Source: an uncultured Gemmatimonadales bacterium (GTDB taxonomy: Bacteria; Gemmatimonadota; Gemmatimonadetes; Longimicrobiales; RSA9). Taken from it: a DNA stretch of 64,000 nt. Positions 3,288-48,909 of the stretch are shown piece by piece. A program made the translations under genes and the position numbers. Where the stretch lies: contig CAWCRS010000002.1 of NCBI GenBank assembly GCA_963798085.1, forward strand, positions 288,001 to 352,000, given 5' to 3'. The first letter of the stretch is position 1. Each line of letters opens with the position of its first letter. The notes below the pieces were generated by a model. That model saw only the letters and a program-made list of their open reading frames with translations. It was not told where the DNA came from and did not search any database.

Positions 3288-4742
3288 TCAGCGCTGTGGC
3301 GGCGGCACCGTGACGGCCCAGAGTCCCTGATCGAGCTGCAGGATGTCCTGCGCATCGGCCGCGGTGAAATAGCCGAAGCCGCCGTCGCCCCAGGTCACGC
3401 CCCAGTTGTTGGCGAACTTGAAGCGTGACGTGGCCGGATCGTAGCCGACAATGGTGATCACCGTGCTGCCCAGCGTGGCCTGGTTCGCGCCGGCGGGCTT
3501 TACGAGCCCGGTACGGGTGGCGTCGTCGGTGCTCCACGCTTCGGTCGCAGTGGCCACGGCGAGCACCGGCGTCTTCCTGTCGAGTGTCGCAAGGATCGCG
3601 TCGAGGCCGGGGATCTGCGTCATGGTGGCCTTGTAGTCCGCGGCGGCGTTGTCGAGATCTCGCCAGGTGACGCCGGCGGGCAGACTGCGATTCAGTGCCC
3701 GGTACGGCCAAATCGATTCGGGCGGCGCGCCGAACTGCCGCGCGACGTAGATCGTGGTCTCGAGAAACGTGCCCTCGCCCGTGACTTCGTCGTGGCGCTT
3801 CGCCTTCTCGTAGATGTAGCGCATGGAGAGGCGCAGCGGGCGGCCCTGTGCCGAGAGCGAGGCATCCATCGCCGTGGCACACGCGGCCGCGGCCACCGTG
3901 CCTTCCTGACCGACATCCCTGACTTCGGCCCAGGGTGCGAGGTCGACCGCTCTGGGCGCTGCAACGATCAGCGAAACCGCACTGCCTCTGCGAATCGATG
4001 TCTGCGACGCAGGCTTCTGCTCGAGTACCCAACCCGGTGCTTGCTCGTTGGTCGCCTGTTGCGTGACGTCGCCCACAGCCAGGCCGACGCCGGCAAGGTC
4101 ACGCGTGGCGCGCTCGAGCGTCAGCCCGCTCACATTCGGCACGTTCACGCGCTGACTGCCTGCCCACGTGTAGACGGAGTAACCGCCGGCCGCCAGCGCG
4201 AGCGCCAGAACGACCGCAGCGGATCGCCAGTGGCTGCGCAGCCGTTCCGAGAGCGAGCCGCGCGCTCTGCGCCGCTTGATGTCCCGGCAGAGCCGGCCCA
4301 CATCGTCGTTCCATGAGCCGTCGCGCACTTCCGCCTGCTGCCGCTCGGCGAGAGCGCGGATGTCCTCGGGCAGATCCGCGGCGCCCGGCAATGCCGCACC
4401 GCCGACGAGGACGGGAATGACGAGAAGGCCGTTGGCGAGCGCGGCATGGATCTCGCCGCGCACCCAGTCATCCGCGTTGTCCAGACGACGCTGGCCCGCC
4501 GCATCCGTGAGTGTGGTCCAGTGCCTGCCGATCACGGCCAGCAGCACATCCGCCTGTCGCAGCTGCTGATTCAGCGTATCCGCGTAGTCGTCACCGCGCT
4601 GGATGTCGTCGACATCCATGAACACGGTGTCGGCGCCGAATACGCGGGAGAGATGATCGTAGAGACGGCCGGCGTGACCGGCCGAATCGTCGCGGCGGTA
4701 GCTGATGAAGATTCCGCTCACACTCGATCCGCGCGGTATCAC
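3288..4742 (-). CDS. TIR domain - TM helix - PASTA - inactive papain (C1)-like domain protein (start may be GTG 4721)
   Basis: TIR: IFISYRRDDSAGHAGRLYD...VFMDVDDI...WVRGE. Then a hydrophobic helix, PASTA (VPNVSGLTLERA...VLEQKP), and a C1-like domain (VRDVGQEGTV...IVGYD...NNWG..WGDGGF). Confidence 0.8.
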   Translation of the reverse strand: MIPRGSSVSGIFISYRRDDSAGHAGRLYDHLSRVFGADTVFMDVDDIQRGDDYADTLNQQLRQADVLLAVIGRHWTTLTDAAGQRRLDNADDWVRGEIHAALANGLLVIPVLVGGAALPGAADLPEDIRALAERQQAEVRDGSWNDDVGRLCRDIKRRRARGSLSERLRSHWRSAAVVLALALAAGGYSVYTWAGSQRVNVPNVSGLTLERATRDLAGVGLAVGDVTQQATNEQAPGWVLEQKPASQTSIRRGSAVSLIVAAPRAVDLAPWAEVRDVGQEGTVAAAACATAMDASLSAQGRPLRLSMRYIYEKAKRHDEVTGEGTFLETTIYVARQFGAPPESIWPYRALNRSLPAGVTWRDLDNAAADYKATMTQIPGLDAILATLDRKTPVLAVATATEAWSTDDATRTGLVKPAGANQATLGSTVITIVGYDPATSRFKFANNWGVTWGDGGFGYFTAADAQDILQLDQGLWAVTVPPPQR

Positions 4743-10413: not shown

Positions 10414-12903
10414 CTACACGCGCCGTTCGACCAGCTCGTTCCAGTCGCGGAAGCCTTCGGTCTCGGCCACCAGCTGGCGGGCACGCTCGAGGCCGAGCAC
10501 GAAACCCCCGTCAGCACCGTGGCGCAGCGCGAGCCGGTCGCGCACGCCCCTGCGCACCGCATCGACGTGATTGTAGCCGGTGTTCCAGGTGCGCAGGTCA
10601 ATGCCGTAGTGGTCGACGATCCGGCGCGCCGCGGCGTCGTCACCGTTGTCATGGGCGGCGACGAAGTCGTCCGCCAGCGCCGCACACTGCGCCAGCGTCG
10701 TCTCGGGTGGCAGGGTTGCGGTGGCTTCGTACGCGCGCAGCACATCGACAATACGCTGGTGGCCGCGGCGGGTGGCCCAGGCCATGGGCGTCGCCCACGG
10801 CGCATCGTCGGGCAGGCTCGTTCGGGCGCCGCGGCGCAGCAGGTATACGACCATGCGCAGCTTGCCGTGCCTTGCGGCATAGCCGAGCGGCGTGGACGAA
10901 TACTCGACATCGCGCACGTTCAGGTCGGCGCCGTGGTCCAGGAAGATGGCTGCGCGCTCAATGTCGCCATTCTGCGCGAAGCGGTGCAGCGGCGTGATGC
11001 GCAGCCAGTCCGGCCGGTTGGGATCCATGCCGTGCGCGAAGAGCAGCTCGTTCGCCGCGCGTGAGCGGCCGGCCACGGTCACGCGCTTCGGCAGGTCGGG
11101 CGCATAGCGCAGCACCAGGCGCAGGAACGGATCGTACCCGGCGGCATTGCCCAGGATGTCGGGATCGTCAGCCCGCGCCGGATTGGCGTCGAACACGGCC
11201 GCGGCCGTGACGAGATCGTCCTCGTGCGCCAGCAGCTGCACCTTGCGCGCCGCGCCGTACGACGCCAGCAGCTCGATCATGCGCTTGTCGCCGCGGCTCA
11301 TGGCAATGGTCAGCGTGTCCGCCGAGCTTTCTACCTCGACGTTCGCATACGCGCCGCGCTCGAGCAGCAGCTCCGCCACTTCGTAGTGCCCGTTGTAGAC
11401 GGCGGAGTAGAGGGCGATGCCGCGCGGTGCAATGTGCTCCTCGGGCAGGTTGGGGTCCGCGCCGTGGTCGAACAGCAGCCGCACGATCTCGAGGTGGCCC
11501 GCCGCCGCCGCATTGCGCAGCGGTGTGCCGGAACAGGCGTAGTAGGTGACGTATTCCGACGGCCTGTTGGCGAGTGAAGCGTCGCCTGCAAGCAGTTCCT
11601 GTACGCGCTCAATGTCGCCGATGTACGAGGCGGTGCAGATGTCGACATACGCGCCGCGGGAACGCAGGTGCTCGATGATCTGGCGCGGCGCCGTCGGATG
11701 GTCGTAGAGCCAGCCGCGGTAGGAGTAGTCGCCGTTGGCCAGCTGGATGGGCCGCGCCCCATCGGCCCGCTTCCCGTTGATGTCCGCGCCCCGTTCCAGC
11801 AGCAGGTCGATCATGGCGGGATTGCGCGTCATGGTCGCCCAGTGGATGGGCAGGTTGGTGGACTCGTCGGCGGCGTGGATCAGCTCGGGCTCTGCGTCCA
11901 GCAGCTGGCGCACCCTGTCCAGGTCGCGGGACCGGATGGCCTCGGCGATGGCGGCGCCGCGCGGCGAGAGGTGCATCGACTCCGCCAGCTTCGCCTCCAG
12001 CAGCTTCTCCATTTCCGTGAAGCCGCGCTCGCGCGCCTCCTCGAGCGGATTGCGGAACGGCTGCGCGCCATGGTCCAGCAGCCAGGCCGCGGCAGCGATC
12101 TGGTTCTCCTGCACGGCAAAGCCCAGCGCGGTGCGGTACTCGTACGCGCTGCGCAGCAGTGCCGGATCCTTCGCGACCAGGCGTTCGAGTGTCGCGATGT
12201 CACCGGTCATGGCAGCGCAGAACATCTCCCATACATCCACGCCCATGCCCGGCGACCAGAACAGCGGCTCGTTCTTCTTCAGCGCTTCCGGCCGGATGAG
12301 CAGTGCGACACGGTCGGCGAATGCCGGCCCGCTCAATGGCCTCGCCGCGTTCAGGTTTTCCTCAATGTCGCTCATGTGTTTCCTCAGCCGCTGTCTCGCC
12401 GAATACAGGCGAGTCTTCACGACATTCGCATTGACGTTCAGGAACTCGGCGATCGCGCTTTGCGAATGATCGCCCATGTAGTAGAGCAGCACGACCTGCT
12501 GCTCCGCTTCCGACAGTGTGCCGATCGCCGCACGCAGCGCGGCGCGCGTTTCCCGCACTTCCAGCGCCGCTTCCGGCGATGGCGCCGTCGAAGCGACATG
12601 CATGGCCGCATCCAGTGCGGTCACCGCGTGCTGCCGGCGCCGCGCGATGCGATCGCAGTGCTTGAACACGATGCTGCGGAACCACGCGGGGAACGCTGCG
12701 GGCTCGCGCAGTGCGCGCAGCTGGCGGTGCGCCTCGACGAACGCCTCCTGCGCCGCATCTTCCGCGAGATGGTAGTCGCCAAGAATCGACGTGGCATACG
12801 CCACTGCGATGTCCTGGAAGCTGCGCACCAGCTCGCCGAATGAGCGGCCGTCGCCCGCCTGCGCCGCGCGCACGAATGCCGTGATCTGCTCCCTGTCCGG
12901 CAA
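10414..12903 (-). CDS. ECF sigma factor fused to ankyrin repeats and a C-terminal helical domain
   Basis: TTG at 12903 after AAGGAGG. Region 2 AEDAAQEAF...FPAWF, region 4 IAEFLNVNANVVKTRLYSARQRL, many ankyrin repeats, C-terminus LERARQLVAETEGFRDW. Confidence 0.88.
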   Translation of the reverse strand: MPDREQITAFVRAAQAGDGRSFGELVRSFQDIAVAYATSILGDYHLAEDAAQEAFVEAHRQLRALREPAAFPAWFRSIVFKHCDRIARRRQHAVTALDAAMHVASTAPSPEAALEVRETRAALRAAIGTLSEAEQQVVLLYYMGDHSQSAIAEFLNVNANVVKTRLYSARQRLRKHMSDIEENLNAARPLSGPAFADRVALLIRPEALKKNEPLFWSPGMGVDVWEMFCAAMTGDIATLERLVAKDPALLRSAYEYRTALGFAVQENQIAAAAWLLDHGAQPFRNPLEEARERGFTEMEKLLEAKLAESMHLSPRGAAIAEAIRSRDLDRVRQLLDAEPELIHAADESTNLPIHWATMTRNPAMIDLLLERGADINGKRADGARPIQLANGDYSYRGWLYDHPTAPRQIIEHLRSRGAYVDICTASYIGDIERVQELLAGDASLANRPSEYVTYYACSGTPLRNAAAAGHLEIVRLLFDHGADPNLPEEHIAPRGIALYSAVYNGHYEVAELLLERGAYANVEVESSADTLTIAMSRGDKRMIELLASYGAARKVQLLAHEDDLVTAAAVFDANPARADDPDILGNAAGYDPFLRLVLRYAPDLPKRVTVAGRSRAANELLFAHGMDPNRPDWLRITPLHRFAQNGDIERAAIFLDHGADLNVRDVEYSSTPLGYAARHGKLRMVVYLLRRGARTSLPDDAPWATPMAWATRRGHQRIVDVLRAYEATATLPPETTLAQCAALADDFVAAHDNGDDAAARRIVDHYGIDLRTWNTGYNHVDAVRRGVRDRLALRHGADGGFVLGLERARQLVAETEGFRDWNELVERRV

Positions 12904-12962
12904 TTGCCTCCTTCTGGTAGATGGACCCGGGCAGTGCTGCAAAGGTGTGAGGTGGCGGGCGG

Positions 12963-13003
12963 TGGAGCGAATGCTGGAACGAATGCTGGAACGAATGATG
13001 GAG
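12963..13003. repeat. 12-bp tandem repeat, about 3.4 copies
   Basis: TGGAGCGAATGC TGGAACGAATGC TGGAACGAATGA TGGAG. Confidence 0.85.
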
Positions 13004-13132
13004 ACCCGGCCGCAAGCGAACGATGGGCGCGAGCGCAATCGCGGAAGGGAAAGCGCGCGGCGCGAGTGCAGCAGGATGCGCTGACCCCGGGCGCGGGTCC
13101 CGGGGCCAGTGGAATCGGATGCGGTTACCCGA

Positions 13133-21894: not shown

Positions 21895-21924
21895 TTGCCG
21901 GCAGGCCCGCTGCGCGACTATCTT
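21895..21924 (+). promoter_or_regulatory. sigma70-like promoter of leader B
   Basis: TTGCCG, 18 bp spacer, TATCTT. Confidence 0.6.
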
Positions 21925-21934
21925 GGCCGCAGGC

Positions 21935-22061
21935 GTGCAGGACGCCTCCCGTCCGCGGGCAGGACCGAGTCCACCTGTGCTGTGCGTTGTACGAACGGTT
22001 CGAACGAACCTCCTTTCGCCCGTCGCCAGCGGACCCGGGCATTCACCACAGGAGGCTCGCC
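21935..22061 (+). ncRNA. Conserved structured 5' leader RNA, copy B
   Basis: GTGCAGGACGCCTCCC-GTCCGC-GGGCA-GGAC cga GTCC-A-CCTGTGC...GAACCTCCTTTC-GCCCG tcgcca GCGGAC c CGGGC attcaccac AGGAGG ctcgcc ATG. Confidence 0.8.
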
Positions 22062-23306
22062 ATGTCTGCTCGCCAGTTTCCATCCCATCCGGATCCGCGT
22101 CAGCTCAAGCACCAGGCAAGGGATCTGCTGCGTGCATTCCGCGCACTCGAGCCGGGTGCGTCCGCGGAATTCCGTGCACACCATCCGTATCCTGATCGCA
22201 CCGGCCCCGCGAATGCCATTCTTGCCAATGCGCAGCTCGTGCTCGCCCGCAGTTACGGCGCCTCGAGCTGGACGCAACTGATCACAGCGTGCCGCCTGAT
22301 CCACGCCCTGCAGCACGACGACCTGGATAGCGTGCGCGAACTCGTGGCGGCGCATCCCGCGTTGACGCAGGACCGCGGCGCGCGTGACGATGGCGGCTGG
22401 CGCACGGCTGCGGCGGCGGCCGCGAGTCTGGCGCTGCGCCGCGTCGTCGACATGCTGCGCCAGCGCGGCGCCCGCGACATCGCGAGCGTGTCGGCCCGGC
22501 CCGAGCTGCGCCCATGGCTGGACACGCTGCGTCTGCTCGGCCGCGTCGGCGCGCGCTTCCCCTTCGACGCGGTTGGTGGCGCGGTCGAACTGCTGGATGG
22601 CGACAATTTCGCCTTCATGATCGAGATCGGCGGCGCCATCGAGGATGAGCGCGGCGACTGGCGCTCGCGCGTGGCCCTCGCCCTGGAAACGTACACGCGC
22701 CATCCCGCGGGCAAACACCGTGTTCTCGAGACCATGGCCGCGCATGGCATTCCCCTGCCCGACTCGCCCGTCATGGCGCTGCACCGCGGGCGCATCGATC
22801 TGCTGGAAGCACACCTGCAACGCGATCCGGCGCTGCTGCGGCGCACTTTCGTACACGCCGAGATCTATCCGCCCGCACTGGGCTGCCACGCGGAGCAGGC
22901 GCTGGCGCTGCACGGTGCGCCGCTCGATGGCGCAACACTGCTGCACATCGCGACCGACTTCGAGGAACTCGAGATCGTGCGCTGGCTGCTCGACCGCGGC
23001 ATGGACGTGAACGCGCGCGCCCGCATCGATGCGACCGGCTTCGGCGGGCACACGGCGCTATTCAGCTGCGTCGTCTCGTACAACGCCGGTCGCGGGACGG
23101 ATCCGGTCGCACAGCTTCTGCTGGAGCGCGGCGCCAATGCCAATGCGCGTGCGTCCATCCGCAAGGGCCTCGCCTTCGCGCGCGATCCTTCCGTGCACGA
23201 GTATCGCGCTGTCACGCCACTGGGCTGGGGCCGCCGGTTCCATGACCCGTCGTACGTCTGTCAGGCAGCGCTGCGTGCAATCGCAGCGCACGGCGGACAG
23301 GAGTGA
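22062..23306 (+). CDS. Ankyrin-repeat protein with conserved N-terminal helical domain (copy B)
   Basis: N-terminus [17 protein letters not shown]...[14 protein letters not shown]. Ankyrin motifs [28 protein letters not shown]. Confidence 0.88.
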
Positions 23307-34107: not shown

Positions 34108-35484
34108 TCAGTTCGCGTCTTTCCGCGTGTGCATTCCGGACAGCACCTCATCTACCCAGGCTTTCATCTCCGGGTACGCGTCGACGCGGGCGCCAAGCGC
34201 AATGAGCGCTCGCACAACAGCGGGATAGTCGATACCGTCGACCGGCGAGTGGACCGCGAACCACAGGGTGCTGTCCAGCACCGTGCCGCCGTAGCGGTTC
34301 AGCGTTTCCAGTGACGCGCCGTGCGCGATCAGCTGGCGCACGAGGTCGAGTCGCCCACGGGCGGCGGCCGTGTGGAGCGCGGTCATGTCTCCATCCGCGC
34401 CGGCTGCATCGACGCCCTTCCGCAGCAGCAGTTCGACGACGTCGCCACGACCGTAGCGGCAGGCCCATGTCAGCGCGTAACCCAGATGCACGGCGGGATC
34501 CTGCGGCAGGTGCGGCCACGGGACATCGACCAGAGGCGAGCCCGGCAACAGTCTGCCGTTGTCGTCGACGAAGCGGTCCACGAGATCAGCACGACCCATG
34601 GCCGCGGCCGAGATCACGTTGTCGGTGCGCGCGCCGCGCAACACCAGCGTTTCAGCTGCCCGCGGATACCCGAACATGAGCGACGTCATCAGCGGCGAGC
34701 CGTCGTCCGCCACGCCGTTGATCGCCGCGCCATGGTTCAGCAGCACCTCGACCAGTGCGCTCTGCACGCCCACAGCGTGCGGATGCACGCTCGACACCAG
34801 CATCTCCATCGTGGTGCACTGGTGGTCGTACATGCTGGCCAGCGCATCCGCCGCGGCGCCGGCCTCGAGCAGCACCGTCGCGATCGCGACGGCGTTGCGC
34901 GGCGAGCGCTGGCGGAAGCCCTCGTGGCCGTTGGCTGCGGTGTAATGCAGCAGTGTGGCGCGGTGCTCGCGTGTCGACCTCGCGTGCACGAGTCGCGGGC
35001 TTGCGTCGATCAGGCGCTGCACGGTCGCCAGGTCACCCGTCACAATGGCGTCGGCCGCTGTTTCGAAGTCCGACACCGCGGACCCCGGCTGGTCGCGCGA
35101 TGCAATGTGCTTCACGAACTTCGGCCAGGACTCAAAACCATGCAGTCGCGCGATGACGAGCTGTGCCTCGGAGAGCTGCAGTCGTGCCGGCGCACCGTCC
35201 GCCGGCAGCAGGCGTGAGCGACGCACGTCTTCCACGACTGCGTTCGCTTCGCGATCCATTCTTGCCGCGTCCGGTTCGCTGGCATGGCTGCGCCCGACCC
35301 ACGCCGGCGGCGCGCTCGCTGACTGTAACCGGGCGAGTCGCCGGATCCATGCCGCGGCCCAGGCGAGGACCGCACCGGCATCGCCCGTGTGCGCTGCCCC
35401 GAGCAGATCCCTGGCCAGTGTTCTGTATTGCGCGAGATTCGGGCGAGGTGCGAGCGGGATGGCGTCGGTGAAGCGGGTCTTCAT
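34108..35484 (-). CDS. Ankyrin-repeat protein with conserved N-terminal helical domain (copy C)
   Basis: N-terminus PRPNLAQYRTLARDLL...LSEAQLVIARLHGFESW. Ankyrin motifs ATLLHYTAA, TALHTAAARG. Confidence 0.9.
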   Translation of the reverse strand: MKTRFTDAIPLAPRPNLAQYRTLARDLLGAAHTGDAGAVLAWAAAWIRRLARLQSASAPPAWVGRSHASEPDAARMDREANAVVEDVRRSRLLPADGAPARLQLSEAQLVIARLHGFESWPKFVKHIASRDQPGSAVSDFETAADAIVTGDLATVQRLIDASPRLVHARSTREHRATLLHYTAANGHEGFRQRSPRNAVAIATVLLEAGAAADALASMYDHQCTTMEMLVSSVHPHAVGVQSALVEVLLNHGAAINGVADDGSPLMTSLMFGYPRAAETLVLRGARTDNVISAAAMGRADLVDRFVDDNGRLLPGSPLVDVPWPHLPQDPAVHLGYALTWACRYGRGDVVELLLRKGVDAAGADGDMTALHTAAARGRLDLVRQLIAHGASLETLNRYGGTVLDSTLWFAVHSPVDGIDYPAVVRALIALGARVDAYPEMKAWVDEVLSGMHTRKDAN

Positions 35485-35608
35485 ACGAAGCTCCTTTCAG
35501 GGAAATCGCCTGGAGTCCGCACAAAGCAGGCTGAAAGAAGTTTCGTAACTTCGGCTGTTGTGCTTCCGGGTGGGCACGGCCCTTTCCGCGGACTGGATGC
35601 GCCCCGAG
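35485..35608 (-). ncRNA. Conserved structured 5' leader RNA, copy C
   Basis: CTCGGGGCGCATCCA-GTCCGC-GGAAA-GGGC cgt GCCC-A-CCCGG...CTTCTTTCA-GCCTG ctttgt GCGGAC tc CAGGC gatttccc TGAAAGGAG cttcgt ATG. Confidence 0.82.
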
Positions 35609-35618
35609 CGCTGCGCTC

Positions 35619-35647
35619 AAACTGGCATCGCGGGGCGGCCCGGACAA
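35619..35647 (-). promoter_or_regulatory. sigma70-like promoter of leader C
   Basis: TTGTCC, 17 bp spacer, CAGTTT. The -10 is weak, so support is mainly positional conservation. Confidence 0.45.
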
Positions 35648-36736: not shown

Positions 36737-38116
36737 CTATTGCGGCGCCTCGCGGGCAGAGTCAACCACGGGCTGGCTGAACATCAGCTCGATACCATCC
36801 GGGTCGCGGATGCCGAACTCGCGCTGCCCGTAGAAAGCGGTGTGCAGGTCCTGCGTGAACCGTATCCCGGGACCGGATGGCGACGCCGCTCTTCCCGCAT
36901 GCTCCCGCTCGATCTGCCGGCGCCTGAGCGTCGCGTACAACGCATCGAGCCGGTCCGTGCGGATCCACAGGCTGAGCGCCGTGGTGGCGCCTCGCCAGGG
37001 ATCGCTCGACGGCACGAACATGATGTTGGCGGCACCGAAAGACAGGTGCGCCCAGTCCAGCCGGCCGTCCTCCGCGTGGCTGTCGCTCAGCACGAATCCG
37101 ATCGCCTGGTACCAGTCCACCGTGGCCGCCATGTCGCGCACACCCACCATGGGCGTGAGGCCGCCCACTGATGCGGCCAGGCTCGCCGCATCCACACGCG
37201 GCGTTGCGGGTGGCTCGGGCTCGGTTGCGCCCGCTTCGCGCAGCAGACGCATGGCCTCGCGGTCCCCGCGCAGCATCGCGATCTCGAGCGGCGTGCGTCC
37301 CTTCGCATCGCGCGCCTCCACGTCCGCACCCAGCGCGAGCAGCAGCTCGAGCGTGTGGTAGTGCTCGCCCGTGCGGAACAGGCCGCCCACGAGTCCGTCC
37401 GGCGGCGCGATCACGTAGTGCAACGCCGTCTGCTCCTGCTCGAAGCGTGACAGCCGGCGGCGAATGGCGTTCGGATCGTGGGCGACGACGCTCTTCACGA
37501 TCCCGGCTTCGCCCATGGCAATCGCCGAGAAGATGTGGTGGCGCGCACCGCGCGAGACGAGCAGTGCCACCACATCGCGGCGCGCCTCTCCGAACACGGT
37601 GGCGGCTCCGATCACGTCCAGCTGATGCACATCGCCGTACCCGTGCACATCCGACCCGCCGTCCAGCAGTGCGCGCACGGACTCGATCGGCCCGTGTCCA
37701 GCCGCGCCGTGCAGCGGCAGCGCATGGTCGCCGGCATCGCGCGCGTTCGGGTACGCGCCCCGCTCCAGCAGCAGCTGCACCGCGTCCGGGTGGCGCACCG
37801 CCAGGTGCAGTCCGGTGGTGCCTTCGCGACTGCGTGCCGTGACGAGGTGAGGATCCTGATCGAGCAGAGCACGCAGCGCAGCGGTGTCGCCTGCGACACA
37901 CGCCGCGAACCACGCGTCCTGTGCGGGAACATTGCGACGGTCCAGCTCGGCCTTCAGTGCCCGCCAGCTCGGAAATCCGTGCTCGCGCGCAACGGCCCGC
38001 TGCGCTTCGCTGAGACGCGCCGTCGGTTGCGTCGCGCGCAGCTCGCGCAGCCGTTCCTTGGCCAGCTTGCGCAGGTACTCGAGGGATGGACGTTCAGGAA
38101 GATCGATGCCCGGCAT
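36737..38116 (-). CDS. Ankyrin-repeat protein with N-terminal helical domain and C-terminal VOC domain (copy D)
   Basis: N-terminus PERPSLEYLRKLAKERL...AQRAVAREHGFPSW, ankyrins, C-terminus VRDMAATVDWYQAIGF...YGQREFGIRDPDG. Confidence 0.9.
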   Translation of the reverse strand: MPGIDLPERPSLEYLRKLAKERLRELRATQPTARLSEAQRAVAREHGFPSWRALKAELDRRNVPAQDAWFAACVAGDTAALRALLDQDPHLVTARSREGTTGLHLAVRHPDAVQLLLERGAYPNARDAGDHALPLHGAAGHGPIESVRALLDGGSDVHGYGDVHQLDVIGAATVFGEARRDVVALLVSRGARHHIFSAIAMGEAGIVKSVVAHDPNAIRRRLSRFEQEQTALHYVIAPPDGLVGGLFRTGEHYHTLELLLALGADVEARDAKGRTPLEIAMLRGDREAMRLLREAGATEPEPPATPRVDAASLAASVGGLTPMVGVRDMAATVDWYQAIGFVLSDSHAEDGRLDWAHLSFGAANIMFVPSSDPWRGATTALSLWIRTDRLDALYATLRRRQIEREHAGRAASPSGPGIRFTQDLHTAFYGQREFGIRDPDGIELMFSQPVVDSAREAPQ

Positions 38117-38240
38117 GATACCCTTCCTTCCGTGGTGCCCGGTGTCCGCGTTGCTCGGGCTGGAAGTCAGGGTCGCTGACCGATGATGACGTCATCCGGG
38201 TGGGTTCAACCCTTTACGCGGACCGACGGCCGCCCTGCCG
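38117..38240 (-). ncRNA. Conserved structured 5' leader RNA, copy D
   Basis: GGCAGGGCGGCCGTCG-GTCCGC-GTAAA-GGGT tga ACCC-A-CCCGG...ACCCTGACTTCCA-GCCCG agcaac GCGGAC ac CGGGC acca CGGAAGGAAGGGT atc ATG. Confidence 0.8.
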
Positions 38241-38250
38241 GCCGGCAGTG

Positions 38251-38280: not shown

Positions 38281-40968
38281 TCATTCGCTCTCGTGCAGGG
38301 CTCGCGCGGGTGGCACACGGCTGGCCCGCAGCGCGGGCGCGAGCGCGGCAAGCAGCGCCACCAGCATCAGCGTCGCCGGCACCATGGTCAGCACCAGAAC
38401 GTCACGGGGAGGCGTGCGGAAGAGGAAGCCGCGCAACGCAGGCGCGGCAAGCGCCGTGATGGCGGTCCCGGCAAGAGTCGCCGCACCGGCAACCATGGCG
38501 TTGGTCCGCAGCACGTCCAGAAGAATGCCGGCGGGCCGCGCACCCAGCGAGTTGCGAATGGCGAATTCGCGCGTCTGCCGCACCACGCTGAAGGAAACGA
38601 CACCGGTCACGCCCACCGCGGCAATGATCAGCGCGAGCGCGCCGAAAACGGACAGCAGCGCCGCCAGAAAACGCTCTACTGCCGTGCTCGCGCGCAGCAC
38701 GTCGCGCATCGTGGTCGCAGGACCCACCGCCACACCCGGATCCATGGCGGCAACGACGGCGCGCACCGCAGGGAGCACGGTTGCCGGCGCATTCGCTGCC
38801 TGCAGCACAACGGTGAGATTGCGCACCCAGCCGGCACTGAACGTGGCAACCTGTGGCAACGACAGGAGAATCTCGGGTGCTGCTTCGGCGCTCAGGCTGC
38901 TGCTCCGCACATCGTCATACACGCCCACAATGGTGATCAGGCCGAACGCTGGGGGTGCGAATGTCGCGCGCACCCGCCTGCCGATGGCCGAAACGCCCGG
39001 CCAGAGCATGTGCGCCGCCGAACGATTCACCAGCGCGACATTCATGCTGCCGGCGCGATCGCCCGCCGCGAGATCGCGGCCTTCCGCCAGCGCAATGCCC
39101 AGGGTCCGCAGGTATCCGGCGGATGCGGCCTGCACTGCGACGCCCACGCGGTCTTCGCGATCCACCGCGTCCTCACGCACGACGTACTCGAAGCGCTGCG
39201 CGTCGCGCAGCGGCAGGCCGCGCACGACTGCAATGGCGCGCACCGCGTCCATGCTCTCGAGGCGCTGCTGCAGCGCGTCATAGAAGCCCGTGATGGCGGC
39301 TGCGTTCGCGTAGCGCGTCACCGGCAGCGTCAGATCCAGCACTGCGCGCGACGCGGCATCCAGCCCCGGATTCACCGCGTTCAGCGCGAGCAGTGAACGC
39401 ACCAGCAGCGACGCGCCGGCCAGGAGGACCGTGGCCAGCGCTACCTGGCTCGCCACCAGCACACGCAGTCCGTGCGAAGCACCTGTCCGCCCGCGACCCG
39501 AGCTGCGCAGCAGGACGGACGGATCCTGCCGTGCCGCGTGCCACGCGGGTGCGAGCGTGAACAGCACGCCTGTCAACAGCGACAGCGCCAGCGCGAACAG
39601 CACGACGCGCGCGTCCAGCATGACGCCCCCCGTGCCCGGCAGATCGCGTGGCGCCAGTCGCAGCATGAGCGGCATCCCGCTCCCGGCCAGCAGCAGACCG
39701 ACCAGACCCCCCGCGCACCCCAGCACCACACCTTCCAGCAGCACCGGCCTCGCCACGCGTGCGCCGCTGCCACCCAGCGCGATGCGCACACCCACCTCCG
39801 ACCGGCGGGTCTCGCTCCTCGCTAACAGAAGATTGGCGACATTGGCACAGGCCAGCAGCAGCAGCAGACCGGACGCGAAGCAGAGCAGCACGGCGACCCG
39901 GCGCGCCGAGCCCAGCACGCGGTCACCCAGCAGCGCAATCTGCGCATCGTGCCCGTCCAGGCCGAACGAGTGCTGCCCCGCATAACGCCGAGCCCACACG
40001 CGCTCGAGGTTTTCCAGCTCGGTACGCACGGCCCTGACCGGAACACCCGGCCGCAGCGAGGCGATCGCCACCAGGCCGTGACCGGACCGGTCCGTGGCCC
40101 AGGACGCCGGGTCCAGGACAGCGTGCACCCAGACGTCGGCCGCCACGCCCGGCAGGTGCACGTCAGGCGCCAGCACACCGATGATGGCCACGGTCCGCGA
40201 ACCTGCTGTTAGCGTGCCTCCCCGCACAATGCCGGCATCGCCCCCGTACGCGGACTGCCAGAGCCCGTGCGAGATCAGCGCCACGGGCGGTGCTCCCACG
40301 ACGTTGTCGCTCGCACCCGGCAGTCTGCCCGCCGCCGTGCGCGCGCCCACCAGCCGGTAAATGTCCCCCACCGTGTTCGCCACCGTCACAACGCGCGCAG
40401 GGCCGCCCGCCACCGGCTGCAGCAGCAGCGATCCGGGAAACCAGCCACCCGTGTGCTCGAAGCTCTTCACGTCCCGGCTCAGGTCCGTGAATTCCGCCGC
40501 CGAAACCAGAAACGCCTGTCCCGGCTGCCGCTCGAACGTGCTCCAGATCGAGACCAGGCGATCCTCGTCCGGCAGACCGAGTCCGCGCAACACCGTCGCG
40601 TCCACCACCGAGAACACCGCGGTCGTGGCGCCAATGCCCAGCCCCACCGTGAGGATGGCGACCGCGGCAAAGCCCGGACGCCGCCGCAGTCCGCGCAGCG
40701 CCACGCGCACGTCTGCTGACAGCCCTGTCAGCAGGCCCCGGGACACGCCCGGCTCCACCGCCAGCGGAGACACCGGATCTCCCGTGACACGTACCACGAC
40801 CGCAGTCCAGAGGACATCGCGGAGTGCGCGCAGCACCAGCCACCCGCGCGCCGGCCAGGCGGATTCTTCCCACTGCTCCTCGAACATGCGCGCCATCTCA
40901 TCGCCGTACCGGCGACGGAAACGGCCCGGCAGAAGCCGCAGCAGAACGCGATAGACGCCGCCCATCAC
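38281..40968 (-). CDS. ADOP-type duplicated MacB/FtsX ABC permease
   Basis: GLGIGATTAVFSVV, LACANVANLLLAR, REFAIRNSLGA. No ATPase domain. Confidence 0.9.
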   Translation of the reverse strand: MMGGVYRVLLRLLPGRFRRRYGDEMARMFEEQWEESAWPARGWLVLRALRDVLWTAVVVRVTGDPVSPLAVEPGVSRGLLTGLSADVRVALRGLRRRPGFAAVAILTVGLGIGATTAVFSVVDATVLRGLGLPDEDRLVSIWSTFERQPGQAFLVSAAEFTDLSRDVKSFEHTGGWFPGSLLLQPVAGGPARVVTVANTVGDIYRLVGARTAAGRLPGASDNVVGAPPVALISHGLWQSAYGGDAGIVRGGTLTAGSRTVAIIGVLAPDVHLPGVAADVWVHAVLDPASWATDRSGHGLVAIASLRPGVPVRAVRTELENLERVWARRYAGQHSFGLDGHDAQIALLGDRVLGSARRVAVLLCFASGLLLLLACANVANLLLARSETRRSEVGVRIALGGSGARVARPVLLEGVVLGCAGGLVGLLLAGSGMPLMLRLAPRDLPGTGGVMLDARVVLFALALSLLTGVLFTLAPAWHAARQDPSVLLRSSGRGRTGASHGLRVLVASQVALATVLLAGASLLVRSLLALNAVNPGLDAASRAVLDLTLPVTRYANAAAITGFYDALQQRLESMDAVRAIAVVRGLPLRDAQRFEYVVREDAVDREDRVGVAVQAASAGYLRTLGIALAEGRDLAAGDRAGSMNVALVNRSAAHMLWPGVSAIGRRVRATFAPPAFGLITIVGVYDDVRSSSLSAEAAPEILLSLPQVATFSAGWVRNLTVVLQAANAPATVLPAVRAVVAAMDPGVAVGPATTMRDVLRASTAVERFLAALLSVFGALALIIAAVGVTGVVSFSVVRQTREFAIRNSLGARPAGILLDVLRTNAMVAGAATLAGTAITALAAPALRGFLFRTPPRDVLVLTMVPATLMLVALLAALAPALRASRVPPARALHESE

Positions 40969-41318
40969 GGGCCGGCACCCTCGATCAGCGCGGAAACGTC
41001 CGCCGAACTCAACAGCGACGCGAGCCGCCTCGCCTCCTCCGCCAGCAACGCCTCGCCTGAGGGCGTCAACGTGTAGAACACTCCCCGCCGCACGTCCTCC
41101 GCCTGCAGCGCCGGTGCCTTCACGGTCCGGATCACACCCCTCGCCTCCAGCCGTGCGATCAGCCGGTACAGCCCGCCGGCATCGAGATCGATCCGCCCTT
41201 CCGAGCGCGCCCGCACTTCCTTCTTAATGCCGTACCCGTGCAGTGCGCGCCCACGCAGCGACAGCAGCACGAGGAACGTGTGCGGCGGCAGCGGCAGCAG
41301 ATCGTCGGTCGATTTCAT
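40965..41318 (-). CDS. PadR family regulator
   Basis: LHGYGIKKEV...GGLYRLIARLE...YTLTPSG. GTGA overlap with the permease. Confidence 0.9.
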   Translation of the reverse strand: MKSTDDLLPLPPHTFLVLLSLRGRALHGYGIKKEVRARSEGRIDLDAGGLYRLIARLEARGVIRTVKAPALQAEDVRRGVFYTLTPSGEALLAEEARRLASLLSSADVSALIEGAGP

Positions 41319-41325
41319 GGCAGTC

Positions 41326-41360
41326 GTCGTCTGATATATGTCAACGTCATATAAGACGAC
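41326..41360. promoter_or_regulatory. Inverted repeat, putative PadR operator
   Basis: GTCGTCT ga TATATG tcaacgt CATATA AGACGAC, just upstream of padR. Confidence 0.6.
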
Positions 41361-41631
41361 GTCAGCATACCCTCTCGCCGCGCCTGCGTCAAGACTGATC
41401 GTGGGGAAAGCCGTCGTCCGGAAGGCGGATCGGCAGGGACCGAGTCCGCAGGTCACGCACGCACGCGCCACACGCCATCGGGCGCGAGGCGCCGGTGTGT
41501 GTCGTCTGCTCGCGCCGTACGTGCGGACGCGACGAGTGTGACTGCCGGACGCCTGGCCGCGCCCGGGCCCACGAACGCGGCGTTGCCGCAGCGGCAACCG
41601 CATCAACACGGAGTTAGAGGCTGGCCCTCGC

Positions 41632-42450
41632 TCAGCGCGCGTCAAACGCGGTGTTGATTTCCGCGAAGGGCAGCGCGTGCGCCAGGCTCGTGAACGTTCC
41701 CTGCGCGGCGATCTCGCCCGCCGCGTGCAGGAAGCCGGCCCAGGCCGCGCGCGCCAGTGCGCCGCCCACACTGATGCGCCGCACGCCCAGATCCGCCAGC
41801 TCGGCCACCGTCGTGAAGTCGCTGCCCACCAGGACGTTCACCGGCTTCGGCGCCACGGCGTTCACGACCGCTGCAATATCGGACTTCGACCGGATGCCGG
41901 GTGCGTACAGGCAGTCCGCGCCCGCCTCGGCATACGCCGTGAGTCGGCGCAGCGTCTCCCCCAGATCAGGTCGCCCGGCAATAAAGCCTTCCGATCGCCC
42001 GGTCAGCAGGACACGCCCGCCCTGGTCCTCGATCGCCTGCCGCGCGGCCTGCATGCGTTCGACGGCGAGGTCGAACGCGAACAGCGGATCCAGCGAATCG
42101 CCCGTCGAGTCCTCGATCGAAAGCCCCGCCACACCCGTCGACACCGCGGCTGCGACATTCGCGTACACCGCCTCCGGCGCCTGCGCGAAACCGCCCTCGA
42201 AGTCCGCGTTGACCGGCACGCGCACCGCGTCCGCCACCTCGCGCAGCCAGACCAGCGTTTCCTCGAGCGACATGTGATTGTCCGCCCGGCCTCGCGACCA
42301 GGCAAATCCCGAGCTGGTCGTAGCCAGCGCCTGGAAGCCCAGTTGTTCCAGCAGCCGCGCACTGCCCACGTCCCAGGGATTGGGAATCACGAAACACCCC
42401 GACTCGTGCAGCACGCGAAACGCCTGGTACCGGTCGGCGGCCGCTGTCAT
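41632..42450 (-). CDS. Isocitrate lyase/PEP mutase family protein
   Basis: PNPWDVGSA, ATTSSG, VNADFEGGF, SIEDSTG, AGADCLYAP. Confidence 0.92.
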   Translation of the reverse strand: MTAAADRYQAFRVLHESGCFVIPNPWDVGSARLLEQLGFQALATTSSGFAWSRGRADNHMSLEETLVWLREVADAVRVPVNADFEGGFAQAPEAVYANVAAAVSTGVAGLSIEDSTGDSLDPLFAFDLAVERMQAARQAIEDQGGRVLLTGRSEGFIAGRPDLGETLRRLTAYAEAGADCLYAPGIRSKSDIAAVVNAVAPKPVNVLVGSDFTTVAELADLGVRRISVGGALARAAWAGFLHAAGEIAAQGTFTSLAHALPFAEINTAFDAR

Positions 42451-42642
42451 CTGTAAGCCCCTGTTGGGTTCGATTTCCCGCGCGCAACGCAGAACACCCG
42501 TCGTCGCCAGTCATCGGTTTCAGTACCCGGCAGCCCACGCGCCGGCTCACACGTCACACACGCACGCGTGACCCTGCGTGCCTGTGGGCGTCCTGCCGGC
42601 GGCCAGCGCTGCAGGTTGCGGCCGCTGCGGGCAACGCCGGTC

Positions 42643-42695
42643 TTGACGGCGATAGGTAGACATTCTATTCATGATAGTAAGACTTTCGACCTATC
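42643..42695 (+). promoter_or_regulatory. Promoter with palindromic putative PadR boxes
   Basis: TTGACG-17-TATTCA. Boxes TAGAcatTCTA and AAGActtTCGA. Outer inverted repeat GATAGGTAGA/TCGACCTATC. Confidence 0.6.
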
Positions 42696-42710
42696 ACGCC
42701 ACTCACCCGG

Positions 42711-43061
42711 ATGATCGTCGTGGCCAGCACACCACCCGCCCGCAACGAGCTGCTGCGCGGCACGCTCGACATGCTGATCCTGCAGACGCTCAGCGCGCAG
42801 CCGCTGCACGGCTACGCCATTGCGCAGCAGATCGAGCGCCTGTCGCAGGAAGCGCTGCGTGTGGAGCAGGGCTCGCTGTATCCGGCGCTCGAGCGGCTGC
42901 AGAAGAAGGGCTGGGCCACCTCGAAGTGGGGTGAGTCGCCCACCGGCCGGAAGGCGAGGTACTACACGATCACGGCTGCAGGCAAGCGACGGCTGGGCGC
43001 GGAAATCTCCAGCTTCGATGACATGCTGGTCGCGATCAACCGTGTTCTGCGCCGGGCGTAA
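42711..43061 (+). CDS. PadR family regulator (acidobacterial type)
   Basis: LLRGTLDMLILQTL...HGYAIA...QGSLYPAL. Confidence 0.92.
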   Translation: MIVVASTPPARNELLRGTLDMLILQTLSAQPLHGYAIAQQIERLSQEALRVEQGSLYPALERLQKKGWATSKWGESPTGRKARYYTITAAGKRRLGAEISSFDDMLVAINRVLRRA

Positions 43062-43064
43062 CGT

Positions 43065-45779
43065 ATGTCGCTGCTGGATGGCCTGCGTCACCGTCTCGCC
43101 GTATTCCTGCGCCAGTCGAGGTACGCGCGCGAGCTGGATGAGGAGCTGCGTTTCCATCTGGACATGGAGACGCTGGAGCGGCAGACAGAGGGTCGGGGCA
43201 CGCTGACACCGGCGCAGGCCCGGGCCGCGGCGCGCCGGCGTCTGGGCAACGAAGTGGCGATAAAGGAGGAGACGCGGCGCGCTGCCGGCCTCGGTCTGCT
43301 GGATGGCGTGCGCCAGGATCTGCAGTTCGCGCTGCGCACGTTCCGCCGCACGCCCACGTTCACGGTCGTTGCCGTGCTCACACTGGCCATCGGCATCGGC
43401 GCTAACACGGCGATATTCAGCGCGGTCGACGCGCTGCTGCTGCGCCCGCTTCCGTACCCGGAGCCGGACCGCCTCATGACGCTGAGCCTGACGGTGCCGG
43501 GGCACGGTGACCGGCCGGCGCGCGATGACGTGACCTGGTCGTATCCCAAGTTCGTGGCGCTGCGCGAATCGCAGCGTATTTTCTCCGATCTCACGCTCTG
43601 GGTGTCGAGTGAGTTCACGCTGCGCAACGGCGCTGATGTGCTGCGCGTTTCGGGCGAGTACATCGATGCGCACTACCTGCCCACGCTCGGTGTGCGCGTG
43701 CAGCTGGGCCGCGGCTTCCAGCCGGCGGATGACGCGGATATGGGCGGCGCGCGCGTAGCGGTGATCAGCGATCCGCTGTGGCGTTTACTGTACAACGCGG
43801 ACCCGGCCATTCTGGGCGCGATGCTCGACGTCGATGGCCGGCCCTATACGATCGTCGGTGTGGCTGCGCCCGAATTCCGCGGCCTTTCCGGGCAGGCGAC
43901 GTTCTGGATGCCGATTGCATCCTCTCCCCCCGGCTGGAATGTGACGGTGCCGTGGAATCACAACTATTTCGCGGTCGCGCGTCTCGAGCCGGGCGTGTCG
44001 GTGGACCGGGCGAAGGCGGAGGTGCAGCGGCTCGGCACACTCGTCGATGCCGTCTATCCCTCGCCTGTAGTCGCCACGGAGCACTGGGGTGCGGTGGCGC
44101 ACGAGCTGGATTCCGCGCGCGTGGATGCGCGCGTGCGGCGCACGCTGCTCATTCTTTTCGTCGCCGTGGGCCTGGTGCTGTTGATCGCCTGCGCCAACGT
44201 GGCGAACCTGTTTCTCGTGCACGCGGCCGGGCGCCGCGCGGAGATCGCGGTTCGCCTCGCCATTGGCGCCGGCCGGCGACGCCTGGTGCGGCAGCTGCTG
44301 GCGGAGAGTCTGCTGCTGTCGCTGTCAGGTGGCATCGCCAGTCTGGTCGTCGCATGGGTCGGCGTGCACGTACTCGCCGATGTCCAGCCGGCGCGCGTGC
44401 TGCGCCTTCAGGACGTTGCCGGACTGGGCGCATTGAATTTCACGGCGATCCGCCTGGATGGCGCCGCGCTGTCGTTTACTGCCGCACTGGCGCTCACGAC
44501 GGGAATACTGTTCGGGCTCGTGCCGGCCCTGCAGGCCACGCGCCCATCATTGACCCATGCACTGCAGGAGCAGCGCGCGGCACGCACTGGTACGCTGCGC
44601 CGGCTGAACAGTCGCAATGTTCTCGTCGTCCTGGAGATCGCGCTGGCGGTGGTGCTGCTGGCAGGTTCCGGCCTCATGCTGCGCAGTCTGGGACACCTGC
44701 TCGAGGTGAGGCCCGGGTTCACGCCCGAGCGTGTGCTGTCGCTGCGCGTGAACCGCGCGCCCGCCTGGGCCTTCGACTCCATCGCGCGCTTCTATGATGT
44801 CGCTGTGGAACGGCTCTCCGCATTGCCGGGCGTCACCGACGTCGCGCTGGAAGACTGCCCTCCGCTGCAGTTGTGCGCCGCCACCGACGCGGCCCTGCCC
44901 GATCGCCCGCCTGTGCCTCGCGGCACGGAGCCCGTGGTGGGCGTGCACTGGATCACACCCGCGTGGCCCGCGGTCATGGGCGTGCCGCTGCTGCGCGGCC
45001 GTCTTTTCGACACTCGCGACCGCAGGGATGGCCGCAAGGTGGTGCTGGTCAGCGAGACGGCGGCGAAGCGACTGTGGCCCGGCGAAGACCCGATCGGCCG
45101 GCCCCTGCTCATCGACGGCGCGGTTTTCGAGCACGACACCGCGTACGTCGCCGGCGTCGTGGGTGACGTGCTCTACGAAACGCTCGACCAGCCGCCGCGA
45201 TCGGACGTCTACGTCTCGTACTATCAGGCGCCGTTCAGCTACCGCATGATGCTGTTCCTGCGCACGCGCGGTGAGCCTGCCGGGCTGGTGCGCGACGCGG
45301 TGCGCGCAATGCACGAGGTCGCGCCCGGATTTCCCGTCTACGACATCGACACCATGAGCGGCCGCATGGCCAGCTCGACCGCGTACGCGCGTTTCAGCGC
45401 GCTCGTGCTCGGCCTCTTCGCAGCGCTCGCCCTGGCGCTGGCCTGCATGGGCACGTACGGCGTGATCTCCTACGGCGTCGCGCAGCGCACGCGTGAGATC
45501 GGCGTGCGCACCGCGCTGGGCGCAACACGCGGCGATGTCGTGGGCCTCGTGGTCGGGCAGGGCATCACGCTCGCCGCAATCGGCGCCCTCCTCGGCCTCG
45601 CGGGCGCGCTCGGCGCCACACGGGCGTTGCGCTCACTGCTCTACGATGTGCAGCCCGGCGATCCATTGACGCTCGCGAGCATCATCGGCGTGCTGCTCAT
45701 CGCCGTGCTGGTGGCGTGCTTCATCCCGGCCAGGCGAGCCGCCACCGTGCCGGCAATCCAGGCGCTGCGCAGCAACTGA
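43065..45779 (+). CDS. ADOP-type duplicated ABC permease
   Basis: ELDEELRFHL, LAIGIGANTAIFS, LIACANVANL, RTREIGVRTALGA. Confidence 0.93.
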   Translation: MSLLDGLRHRLAVFLRQSRYARELDEELRFHLDMETLERQTEGRGTLTPAQARAAARRRLGNEVAIKEETRRAAGLGLLDGVRQDLQFALRTFRRTPTFTVVAVLTLAIGIGANTAIFSAVDALLLRPLPYPEPDRLMTLSLTVPGHGDRPARDDVTWSYPKFVALRESQRIFSDLTLWVSSEFTLRNGADVLRVSGEYIDAHYLPTLGVRVQLGRGFQPADDADMGGARVAVISDPLWRLLYNADPAILGAMLDVDGRPYTIVGVAAPEFRGLSGQATFWMPIASSPPGWNVTVPWNHNYFAVARLEPGVSVDRAKAEVQRLGTLVDAVYPSPVVATEHWGAVAHELDSARVDARVRRTLLILFVAVGLVLLIACANVANLFLVHAAGRRAEIAVRLAIGAGRRRLVRQLLAESLLLSLSGGIASLVVAWVGVHVLADVQPARVLRLQDVAGLGALNFTAIRLDGAALSFTAALALTTGILFGLVPALQATRPSLTHALQEQRAARTGTLRRLNSRNVLVVLEIALAVVLLAGSGLMLRSLGHLLEVRPGFTPERVLSLRVNRAPAWAFDSIARFYDVAVERLSALPGVTDVALEDCPPLQLCAATDAALPDRPPVPRGTEPVVGVHWITPAWPAVMGVPLLRGRLFDTRDRRDGRKVVLVSETAAKRLWPGEDPIGRPLLIDGAVFEHDTAYVAGVVGDVLYETLDQPPRSDVYVSYYQAPFSYRMMLFLRTRGEPAGLVRDAVRAMHEVAPGFPVYDIDTMSGRMASSTAYARFSALVLGLFAALALALACMGTYGVISYGVAQRTREIGVRTALGATRGDVVGLVVGQGITLAAIGALLGLAGALGATRALRSLLYDVQPGDPLTLASIIGVLLIAVLVACFIPARRAATVPAIQALRSN

Positions 45780-45793
45780 ATGAAGGTCGATTG

Positions 45794-46126
45794 ATGCAGG
45801 ACAACTTTTCGCCTGTTGCCCGGCAGAGCCTGCCGGACAAGCTGGCCAGACAGATACGAGACGCCATCCAGGCGGGCGCCTACAAGGAAGGCGACCGGCT
45901 GCCTTCGATCGGTGAGCTGGCCCAGACCTTCGGTGTCGCGCCACCCACCGTGCGCGAAGCGCTCACGCGTCTCGAGACGCTGGGTCTCGTGGAGGTGCGC
46001 CACGGCGTTGGCGTCTACGTGGGTAACACCGTTTTAGCCGAGCTGCTCGAGGCCGTGCGCGCCATGCTGCAGGCGGCAGCGCCGGCACCTCCCCCCGCAC
46101 GGCCTGCCCCGGTCGTGACCGTGTAA
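45794..46126 (+). CDS. GntR-family HTH protein, effector domain missing or truncated
   Basis: GDRLPSIGELAQTFGVAPPTVREALTRL. Ends at 110 aa with a Pro/Ala tail. Confidence 0.7.
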   Translation: MQDNFSPVARQSLPDKLARQIRDAIQAGAYKEGDRLPSIGELAQTFGVAPPTVREALTRLETLGLVEVRHGVGVYVGNTVLAELLEAVRAMLQAAAPAPPPARPAPVVTV

Positions 46127-46133
46127 CCCGGAG

Positions 46134-47405: not shown

Positions 47406-47533
47406 TGTGGTGCTCTCGCTTTCTGTGTTCTCCTGTGCTTCCCGTGACCACGGCTTGCGCGCAAAAGACCGATGCTGCGCACCCGGCGGCGCGCAGCATA
47501 CTGCAACGCGTCCGGCCCTGCCACCGGATGCCG

Positions 47534-47559
47534 GTCACATTTGTCCTGCGGGAAGCGTC
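47534..47559 (+). promoter_or_regulatory. ECF41-type promoter
   Basis: GTCACA-N16-CGTC directly upstream of the ECF41-like gene, matching the known TGTCACA-N16-CGTC consensus. Confidence 0.75.
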
Positions 47560-47594
47560 ATTGGTACGGAACAACACCACGGGAGAAGCGACGT

Positions 47595-48470: not shown

Positions 48471-48505
48471 TCCGTCCCGTGTGCGTCGGGCCGCGGGCCG
48501 CGGCA

Positions 48506-48557
48506 TTCCCCTTGCGAACCAAGGTATGCGACCCTAGCTTCCCCTTGTGAACCGGGG
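48506..48557 (+). promoter_or_regulatory. Two repeated imperfect palindromes, putative PadR operators
   Basis: TTCCCCTTGCGAACCAAGG (48506-48524) and TTCCCCTTGTGAACCGGGG (48539-48557), 33 bp apart. Confidence 0.65.
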
Positions 48558-48563
48558 GGAGAC

Positions 48564-48908
48564 ATGCCGCGCAATGTCATTGACGCCGTTCAGGGCACAC
48601 TCGATTTCCTGATCCTCAAGACGCTGTCATGGGGCGCCATGCACGGCTACGCGATTGCCAACTGGATCGGCGAAGCCACGGAGGCGGAGCTGCGCATTGA
48701 GGAGGGCACGCTGTATCCGGCGCTGCACCGGCTCGAGCATCGCGGCCTCATCGAGGCGGACTGGGGCGTGTCGGACAACAACCGGCGCGCGAAGTTCTAC
48801 CGGCTGACCACGACGGGCCGGCGCGAGCTGCGCGCGCGCACGAAGGACTGGGAGCGTTACGCGCGCGCGGTGGAGCGCGTGCTGACGCTGCGGCCTGGAG
48901 GATCCTGA
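48564..48908 (+). CDS. PadR family regulator (acidobacterial type)
   Basis: QGTLDFLILKTL...HGYAIA...EGTLYPALHRLE...NNRRAKFYRLT. Confidence 0.93.
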   Translation: MPRNVIDAVQGTLDFLILKTLSWGAMHGYAIANWIGEATEAELRIEEGTLYPALHRLEHRGLIEADWGVSDNNRRAKFYRLTTTGRRELRARTKDWERYARAVERVLTLRPGGS

Positions 48909-48909
48909 G

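Follow-up and report, generated by a model that had tools for sequence, protein, structure and literature searches.

The stretch of DNA analysed here, referred to below as the window, comprises 64,000 nt (contig CAWCRS010000002.1, positions 288,001-352,000 of the forward strand; assembly GCA_963798085.1, an uncultured Gemmatimonadales bacterium). Positions 21895-22061 hold one copy, leader B, of an uncatalogued and widespread family of 5' leaders about 130 nt long, which are predicted to form two pseudoknots and a hairpin over the Shine-Dalgarno (SD) sequence, a structure backed by compensatory changes. The features of the locus and the other leader copies of the window are listed below, with the basis of each assignment in brackets.

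TTGCCG 21895-900, 18-nt spacer, TATCTT 21919-24, + strand: putative sigma-70-type promoter (sequence)
21931-21947, + strand: 5' hairpin P1, AGGCGU/ACGCCU with loop GCAGG (register-free test)
21937-21978, + strand: pseudoknot 1, P1 loop (G)CAGG 21937-41 with CCUG(U) 21974-78 (covariation)
21948-21958, + strand: small CC/GG hairpin, whose 7-nt loop shows GUCCGC (21951-56) (covariation)
21962-21972, + strand: hairpin GGAC-cga-GUCC, the P2 of the original prediction (covariation)
21979-22004, + strand: variable, weakly structured linker, 17-32 nt over the measured columns (folding energy)
22005-22059, + strand: long hairpin with a 13-nt apical loop, over the SD (swap test, folding)
22029-22034, + strand: GCGGAC in the apical loop, predicted kissing partner of GUCCGC, forming pseudoknot 2 (compensatory variants)
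22062-22292, + strand: N-terminal basic helical domain of about 75 aa, candidate RNA-binding partner (model, conservation)
22062-23306, + strand: gene B, 414 aa, helical domain and then ankyrin repeats (domain matches)
1960-2108, - strand: leader A, before a domain-ankyrin gene (1971 to 196) (profile search, covariance model)
35470-35619, - strand: leader C, before a domain-ankyrin gene (35484 to 34108) (profile search, covariance model)
38105-38249, - strand: leader D, before a domain-ankyrin-VOC gene (38116 to 36737) (profile search, covariance model)

Six ankyrin-repeat genes are found in a 38-kb part of the window (196-38116), four of them with a leader, and the two that lack the N-terminal domain have none; the leaders are just 49-59% identical, and the genes form a local cluster of old paralogues. 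An ECF-type sigma factor fused to ankyrin repeats is encoded at 10414-13038 (-) with no leader upstream, and the helical domain may recur in degenerate form at its C-terminus (two-sequence search: 9.6 bits, E 1e-4). Other observations in the window include an ORF at 3288-4742 (-) matching TIR_2, PASTA and papain-like peptidase, an unusual combination, and several PadR-like and MacB/FtsX permease modules at 38281-51546.

The motifs on which the original prediction was built are all present in leader B: GTGCAGG (21935-41), CCTGTGC (21974-80), GTCCGC (21951-56) and GCGGAC (22029-34), together with the stem arms GGAC 21962-65 / GTCC 21969-72 and GCCCG 22018-22 / CGGGC 22036-40; B also lies on the + strand, and copies A and C on the - strand. 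Long ORFs overlapping leader B were set aside; a conserved start codon at 22062 follows the SD. Single-sequence folding of the four window copies gave results no better than shuffles (z 0.02 to -0.52), as expected for a pseudoknotted leader, and the case for the leader therefore rests on comparison. The exact 8-mer GTCCGCGG occurs in the window at chance frequency (13 vs 11.4 expected).

A consensus promoter scan called no site at B (8/12 matches, under the cut-off of the scan). A TAnnnT motif located 30-35 nt 5' of GUCCGC was found 79 times in 96 homologous loci, a spacing that makes it likely that the RNA begins at P1, with transcription of B presumably starting near 21931. The P1 hairpin, which the original prediction missed, has at least 4 bp in 91 of 101 leaders by a register-free test whose 500 swaps averaged 61 and never exceeded 72; in the model alignment it is out of register in roughly one third of cases and 63% paired. 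The 7-bp stem to which the name P1 had first been given has pseudoknot 1 (4-5 bp) as its core, but does not hold at full length: at least seven contiguous pairs occur in just 5/101 leaders (4.0 in swapped controls), the conserved part is 3-5 bp long, and the hairpin AGGCGU/ACGCCU conflicts with the outer pairs. In an alignment that was not fitted to the structure, one column of pseudoknot 1 is A-U in 18, G-C in 18 and broken in 0 of 36 leaders, and another is G-C in 31 and A-U in 4; the entire helix is substituted in three leaders (L197, L200 and L202).

An unguided scan ranked highest five pairs that are all complementary, one of them previously unsuspected; the C-G pair of the small hairpin is among these top five (C-G 89, U-A 4, A-U 3, G-C 2, U-G 1 and broken 1; n=100). 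The strongest covarying pair belongs to the GGAC/GUCC hairpin (E about 0 in the tree-based null, 98% of cells paired). The linker that follows has a mean folding energy of -2.6 kcal/mol and a G+C content below that of the 5' core, and may serve as a ribosome standby stretch.

In the long hairpin, CCUCCU 22009-14 pairs with the SD AGGAGG 22050-55, and GCCCG with CGGGC. The duplex formed by a leader's own arms has an energy of -21.2 kcal/mol, versus -16.3 kcal/mol for swapped arms (n=100); the unpaired probability of the SD is below 0.3 in 50 of 56 leaders, and freeing the SD through the start codon costs a mean of 11 kcal/mol. The apical GCGGAC is complementary to the GUCCGC loop: among 129 distinct leaders, left after two fragmentary or misaligned matches and one spurious match had been dropped, the hexamers pair 6/6 in 124 and 5/6 in 4, with 1 misaligned, although many of the 115 invariant cases had been selected by that very pattern. 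Support for pseudoknot 2 comes from distant members, with the compensatory variants GCCUGC:GCAGGC, GUCCAC:GUGGAC, AUCCGC:GCGGAU and GCCCGU:ACGGGC, and not from the simplified tree-based null, in which the hexamer pair has an E of about 15, a weak value because the hexamers hardly vary and power is low. The loop holds 3-7 nt on the 5' side of GCGGAC in 115/129 leaders and 0-3 nt on the 3' side in 124/129, lengths compatible with a kissing contact while the two hairpins remain closed, a reading which draws on general knowledge of 3'-stacked RNA loops.

Two alignments were used to assess the family as a whole. In a structure-free MAFFT alignment of 36 leaders (29 selected by way of the protein plus the seven of this genome), three helices are 94% paired, compared with 34-46% in slid controls, and 66 two-sided changes were counted versus 23.5 in shuffles (0/500). 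In an alignment of 101 leaders, whose model held nested stems only and about three quarters of which were picked by a pattern that fixes both hexamers, 35 pairs are 88% paired and two-sided changes were found at 28 of them. Seven helices covary, many including G-U pairs; the simplified tree-based null gave E below 0.1 for two pairs and 0.17-0.42 for three others. Comparison thereby shows the predicted helices, the SD they would hide and, as detailed below, a near one-to-one tie with the N-terminal domain. An HDV-like ribozyme, which also has a nested double pseudoknot, was considered and rejected: there is no Rfam match, and the covarying helices come in a different order, with the helix order of HDV as the yardstick.

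A profile search with B recovers C, A and the fourth copy, D, which the original prediction did not name, and the covariance model matches exactly four places in the window (A-D) and seven in the genome, with pairwise identities of 0.43-0.60 among the seven. The compensatory changes reported for B relative to A and C are there: A21939-U21976 is G-C in both other copies, the GGAC:GUCC stem has A-U versus G-C, and GCCCG:CGGGC has C-G versus U-A. The covariation is a property of the whole family and not a trait of B itself, and B is not its most diverged copy as had been proposed. The gap is marginal (B-A 0.54, B-C 0.50, A-C 0.58), D is equally distant (0.49-0.59), another copy of the genome, C2:239797-239942, is farther still (0.43-0.54), and 29 leaders of other genomes are on average more similar to B (mean identity 0.61) than to the remaining copies (0.45-0.59). 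The family is real and widespread and its partner is an uncharacterised domain, and the claims particular to copy B were mostly wrong.

The most diverged copy of the genome (L155:1744-1889, - strand, the same as C2:239797-239942; 42 bits) shows, by eye, GCCCGA:UCGGGC and GAGGG:CCCUC, and stands before a gene for a non-ankyrin protein of 204 aa; L203 seems to belong to the same subtype. At another leader copy of the genome (L152, C2:375506-376138) the gene has 166 aa in frame and ankyrin-like sequence goes on in another frame, which suggests a frameshift or an assembly error.

The structure model of the N-terminal domain of B contains four helices (pLDDT 87). In 97-100% of 59 sequences each of positions 16, 20 and 63 is K or R, and a search with the domain matched 10,787 protein clusters (50% identity). 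The Pfam search with the domain of B gave no match, Glyoxalase_8 (PF20066) included; among relatives of the domain, 14/59 match PF20066 at E up to 1 (best 1.7e-5), 1/68 full proteins pass its cut-off, and a profile comparison of one domain member with Glyoxalase_8 gave a probability of 95%, so the domain is regarded as a distant relative of Glyoxalase_8 and not as a member. The best match of the domain sequence in the PDB has an E of 0.06, Foldseek with the domain model found nothing at E 0.001 or better, the best VIA match had a Z of 3.7, and the ESM Atlas returned unnamed clusters only, below 0.9. The parts C-terminal to the domain are diverse: 50 of the 68 proteins scanned, out of 106 extracted, have ankyrin repeats, and the others methyltransferase, LRR, Clp_N or no known domain. 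Many proteins carry two or three copies of the domain or a degenerate C-terminal copy.

The leader and the domain are found together from whichever side the search is started. At 112/118 pattern-selected loci the domain is encoded directly downstream, 48 of these loci having seeded the domain profile; the six exceptions comprise two false positives of the pattern without a model match, two cuts at contig ends and two weak matches. Loci selected through the protein have the leader in 30/30 cases and, for two other protein classes, in 18/22 (E 0.031 or better); of the four misses, one match lacks a start, one is weak and internal, one is a fragment at a contig end, and the fourth has a variant leader that can be recognised by eye. 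The genome itself has seven leaders for seven domain genes. Among 61 genomes of the phylum, leader and domain occur in the same 13, a count that is partly circular for the positives, the RNA model having been partly built from them; outside the genome under study, 18/18 RNA matches adjoin a domain match. Two domain genes in the phylum have no intact leader: L246 is internal to an operon, and L247 is missing the leader core. In the latter (L247:290-350) a shortened variant keeps the promoter-like site and P1, and the part from the core through the SD is gone, the remainder being joined to the start region.

The conserved partner of the leader is accordingly this N-terminal domain, and not the ankyrin repeats or the VOC-ABC neighbours. 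A VOC gene, an ABC-ATPase gene and an ankyrin gene do lie divergent from leader B, as had been described, and the description of a conserved structured leader RNA with covarying stems stands; the hint of a response to toxic compounds, drawn from that divergent operon, does not. Among 109 homologous loci from other genomes (flanks of about 1.5 kb), a VOC match and an ABC match were found at 1 locus each, and at 0/19 of the loci most like gene B, so the operon is uninformative on the signal of the leader. A weaker route to stress remains, through the fusion of the domain in some genes to VOC, Clp_N and similar sensing or binding modules.

The leader is common. The exact degenerate pattern gave 120 loci from 4/64 parts of the GTDB collection, corresponding to an estimated 2,300 stretches or so overall, in about eight phyla; the record titles include Acidobacteriota, Actinomycetota, Pseudomonadota and Gemmatimonadota, and further Planctomycetota, Methylomirabilota, Polyangiaceae and Eisenbacteria. 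The phage collection gave no match to the domain of B; the plasmid collection, searched with the domain of a paralogue, gave six records, several of which are large replicons. Rfam 15 at gathering thresholds gave no matches in the whole window; leader B drew only weak chance matches (E 1.8 or worse), and the leaders of 20 homologous and sister loci drew none. In the libraries searched, neither the leader nor the partner domain has an Rfam or Pfam entry of its own. The leader is not described in the literature searched, in the main texts of PMC11109978, PMC5737381 and PMC8632094 or in one supplementary file of the last; other supplementary data of these papers could list the motif.

Two related domain families have leaders of their own. 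At 13/15 Alphaproteobacteria Glyoxalase_8 loci there is a different leader with the same plan and the long-range pair GCUCGC:GCGAGC (94% paired, 44 two-sided changes vs 16; no Rfam match for any of the 13), and at the fourteenth the leader lies about 115 nt farther upstream; a PF20066 match without the helical part (L177) has no leader. The GCUCGC:GCGAGC pair is also used by one ankyrin-type leader (L201). Four PRK05973 loci have a third leader, where CCCUCC (in three) or CUCUCC (in the fourth) stands opposite a GGAGGG that occupies the loop of an SD-covering hairpin; these four sequences are too alike for a covariation test, and the similarity of the domain to the start of PRK05973 is weak (50% probability). 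Model R1 misses the sister leaders (L169-L182, Glyoxalase_8-type; L208-L211, PRK05973-type), and R2 misses the ankyrin-type and PRK05973-type leaders; kinship of the sisters therefore rests on their layout and on the homology of the proteins.

We consider the chances about even that the leader is a translational operator bound by the helical domain, which would damp the synthesis of its own protein. The GUCCGC loop would kiss the apex of the SD hairpin with both hairpins staying closed; free protein would clamp the compact leader, so that a ribosome on the linker could not melt the SD hairpin. The level of free protein would depend on the C-terminal part, which varies (ankyrin, LRR, Clp_N, VOC or methyltransferase), much as that of ribosomal proteins depends on rRNA. 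That the domain binds, that it represses and that the C-terminal part brings relief are inferences. This autoregulation is supported by the joint occurrence of leader and domain with a varying C-terminal part, by the near-invariant basic residues and a loop geometry that suits two closed hairpins, and by the two related domain families with leaders of the same layout; the structure is conserved, stands 5' of the gene of the candidate binder and covers the initiation region. Several points weigh against it. The domain has no solved relative showing RNA binding, the additional or degenerate copies in many proteins suggest that it may do another job, an adjacent leader and domain would be inherited together whatever the mechanism, and L246 and L247 are domain genes without an intact leader.

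A broader form of autoregulation can be put forward tentatively, as a possibility that we hold to be less than probable. The domain and its cognate double-pseudoknot leader would make up a portable one-component regulator acting at the RNA level, which has co-diverged into at least three subfamilies and been bolted onto thousands of sensor or sponge proteins, with occupancy of the C-terminal part setting the protein's own translation. The subfamilies would differ in their kissing codes: GUCCGC:GCGGAC (ankyrin), GCUCGC:GCGAGC (Glyoxalase_8) and CCCUCC:GGAGGG (PRK05973).

An orphan riboswitch, with a metabolite or ion recognised by the conserved 5' core and the signal relayed to the SD hairpin through the kissing contact, seems unlikely, though it deserves to be taken seriously. 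The compact core of several helices has near-invariant bases, the SD hairpin covaries, and the element is widespread and lies directly after a likely promoter, all of which suits a riboswitch; an aptamer-like conserved core is indeed joined to an expression platform, the SD hairpin. However, the element is tied to one protein domain and not to a single pathway, the C-terminal parts are unrelated, the downstream genes lack a common metabolite theme, and the sister domains come with an altered core sequence. Swap tests, which are blind to switching by tertiary docking, found no conserved alternative pairing that would free the SD: the purine run against the anti-SD gave z -2.3 to 0.3 and the linker -3.1 and -1.5; the closed hairpin, by comparison, reaches -16 to -18. 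This weighs against a strand-exchange switch and not against a ligand that stabilises docking.

Still less probable is control without a ligand, by a dimmer based on S1/30S standby (tisB-like) or by an activating pseudoknot that opens the SD hairpin (repZ-like). When the SD is forced open, GUCCGC:GCGGAC pairs fully in the predicted folds of B, C and D and partly in that of A, a point in favour of this reading; the tie of the RNA to one domain across phyla and its three subfamilies are left unexplained by either version. Cleavage or release of the leader to give a stable RNA that remains on the protein, as a subunit or inhibitor, is very improbable: the compact double-pseudoknot fold and the strict pairing with one domain would suit a dedicated RNA-protein complex, but the SD is the centre of the 3' hairpin and the two covary, a sign of control in cis, and no terminator-like site was found in the region. 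A DNA operator with GTCCGC/GCGGAC as inverted half-sites for the helical and basic domain, the stems being incidental, is scarcely credible, since the hexamers do form an inverted repeat but change together and stay complementary, their spacing varies by tens of bases, and seven helices covary with many G-U pairs.

If the domain binds the leader, autoregulation here would mean a new RNA-binding domain and widespread translational feedback outside the world of ribosomal proteins, and the portable regulator, if true, a set of possibly orthogonal protein-RNA switches; if the leader binds a small molecule instead, it would be a common orphan riboswitch. The family is well worth a bench test.

Among known RNAs, the leader resembles the SAM-II, preQ1-II/III and ZTP riboswitches, where a compact conserved core lies beside a hidden SD, and differs from them in having no Rfam match, shared metabolic theme or conserved alternative fold. 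COMPASS cluster #630,527, a structured motif located directly upstream of genes with glyoxalase, flavin monooxygenase or NmrA-like annotations (bioRxiv 10.64898/2026.10.21.760802), may be a Glyoxalase_8-type sister leader, judging by a text description that gives no sequence; the available text of that preprint names no shared N-terminal domain and does not contain the word "ankyrin", and the ankyrin-type family may be among its 20,149 clusters. The nearest counterparts in anatomy are tisB (PMC7708055) and IncI repZ (PMC8383071), where the ribosome-binding site is sequestered and preceded by a 5' pseudoknot or a long-range pairing; these are toxin and plasmid genes governed by antisense RNAs; unlike these, the leader has two pseudoknots, pairs at the apex of the SD hairpin and tracks a protein domain. 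The precedent for autogenous control by a leader, and the nearest match in mode of action, is provided by the pseudoknot operators of E. coli S15/rpsO (RF00114), S4 (RF00140) and L20 (PMC3616713), where a pseudoknotted leader likewise stands before the gene of the (here presumed) binder and control is translational, at the initiation region. The present family departs from them in its lack of an Rfam match and in a binder that is only a candidate, and in having up to seven copies per genome and, as partner, a non-ribosomal, portable N-terminal domain with many cargos.
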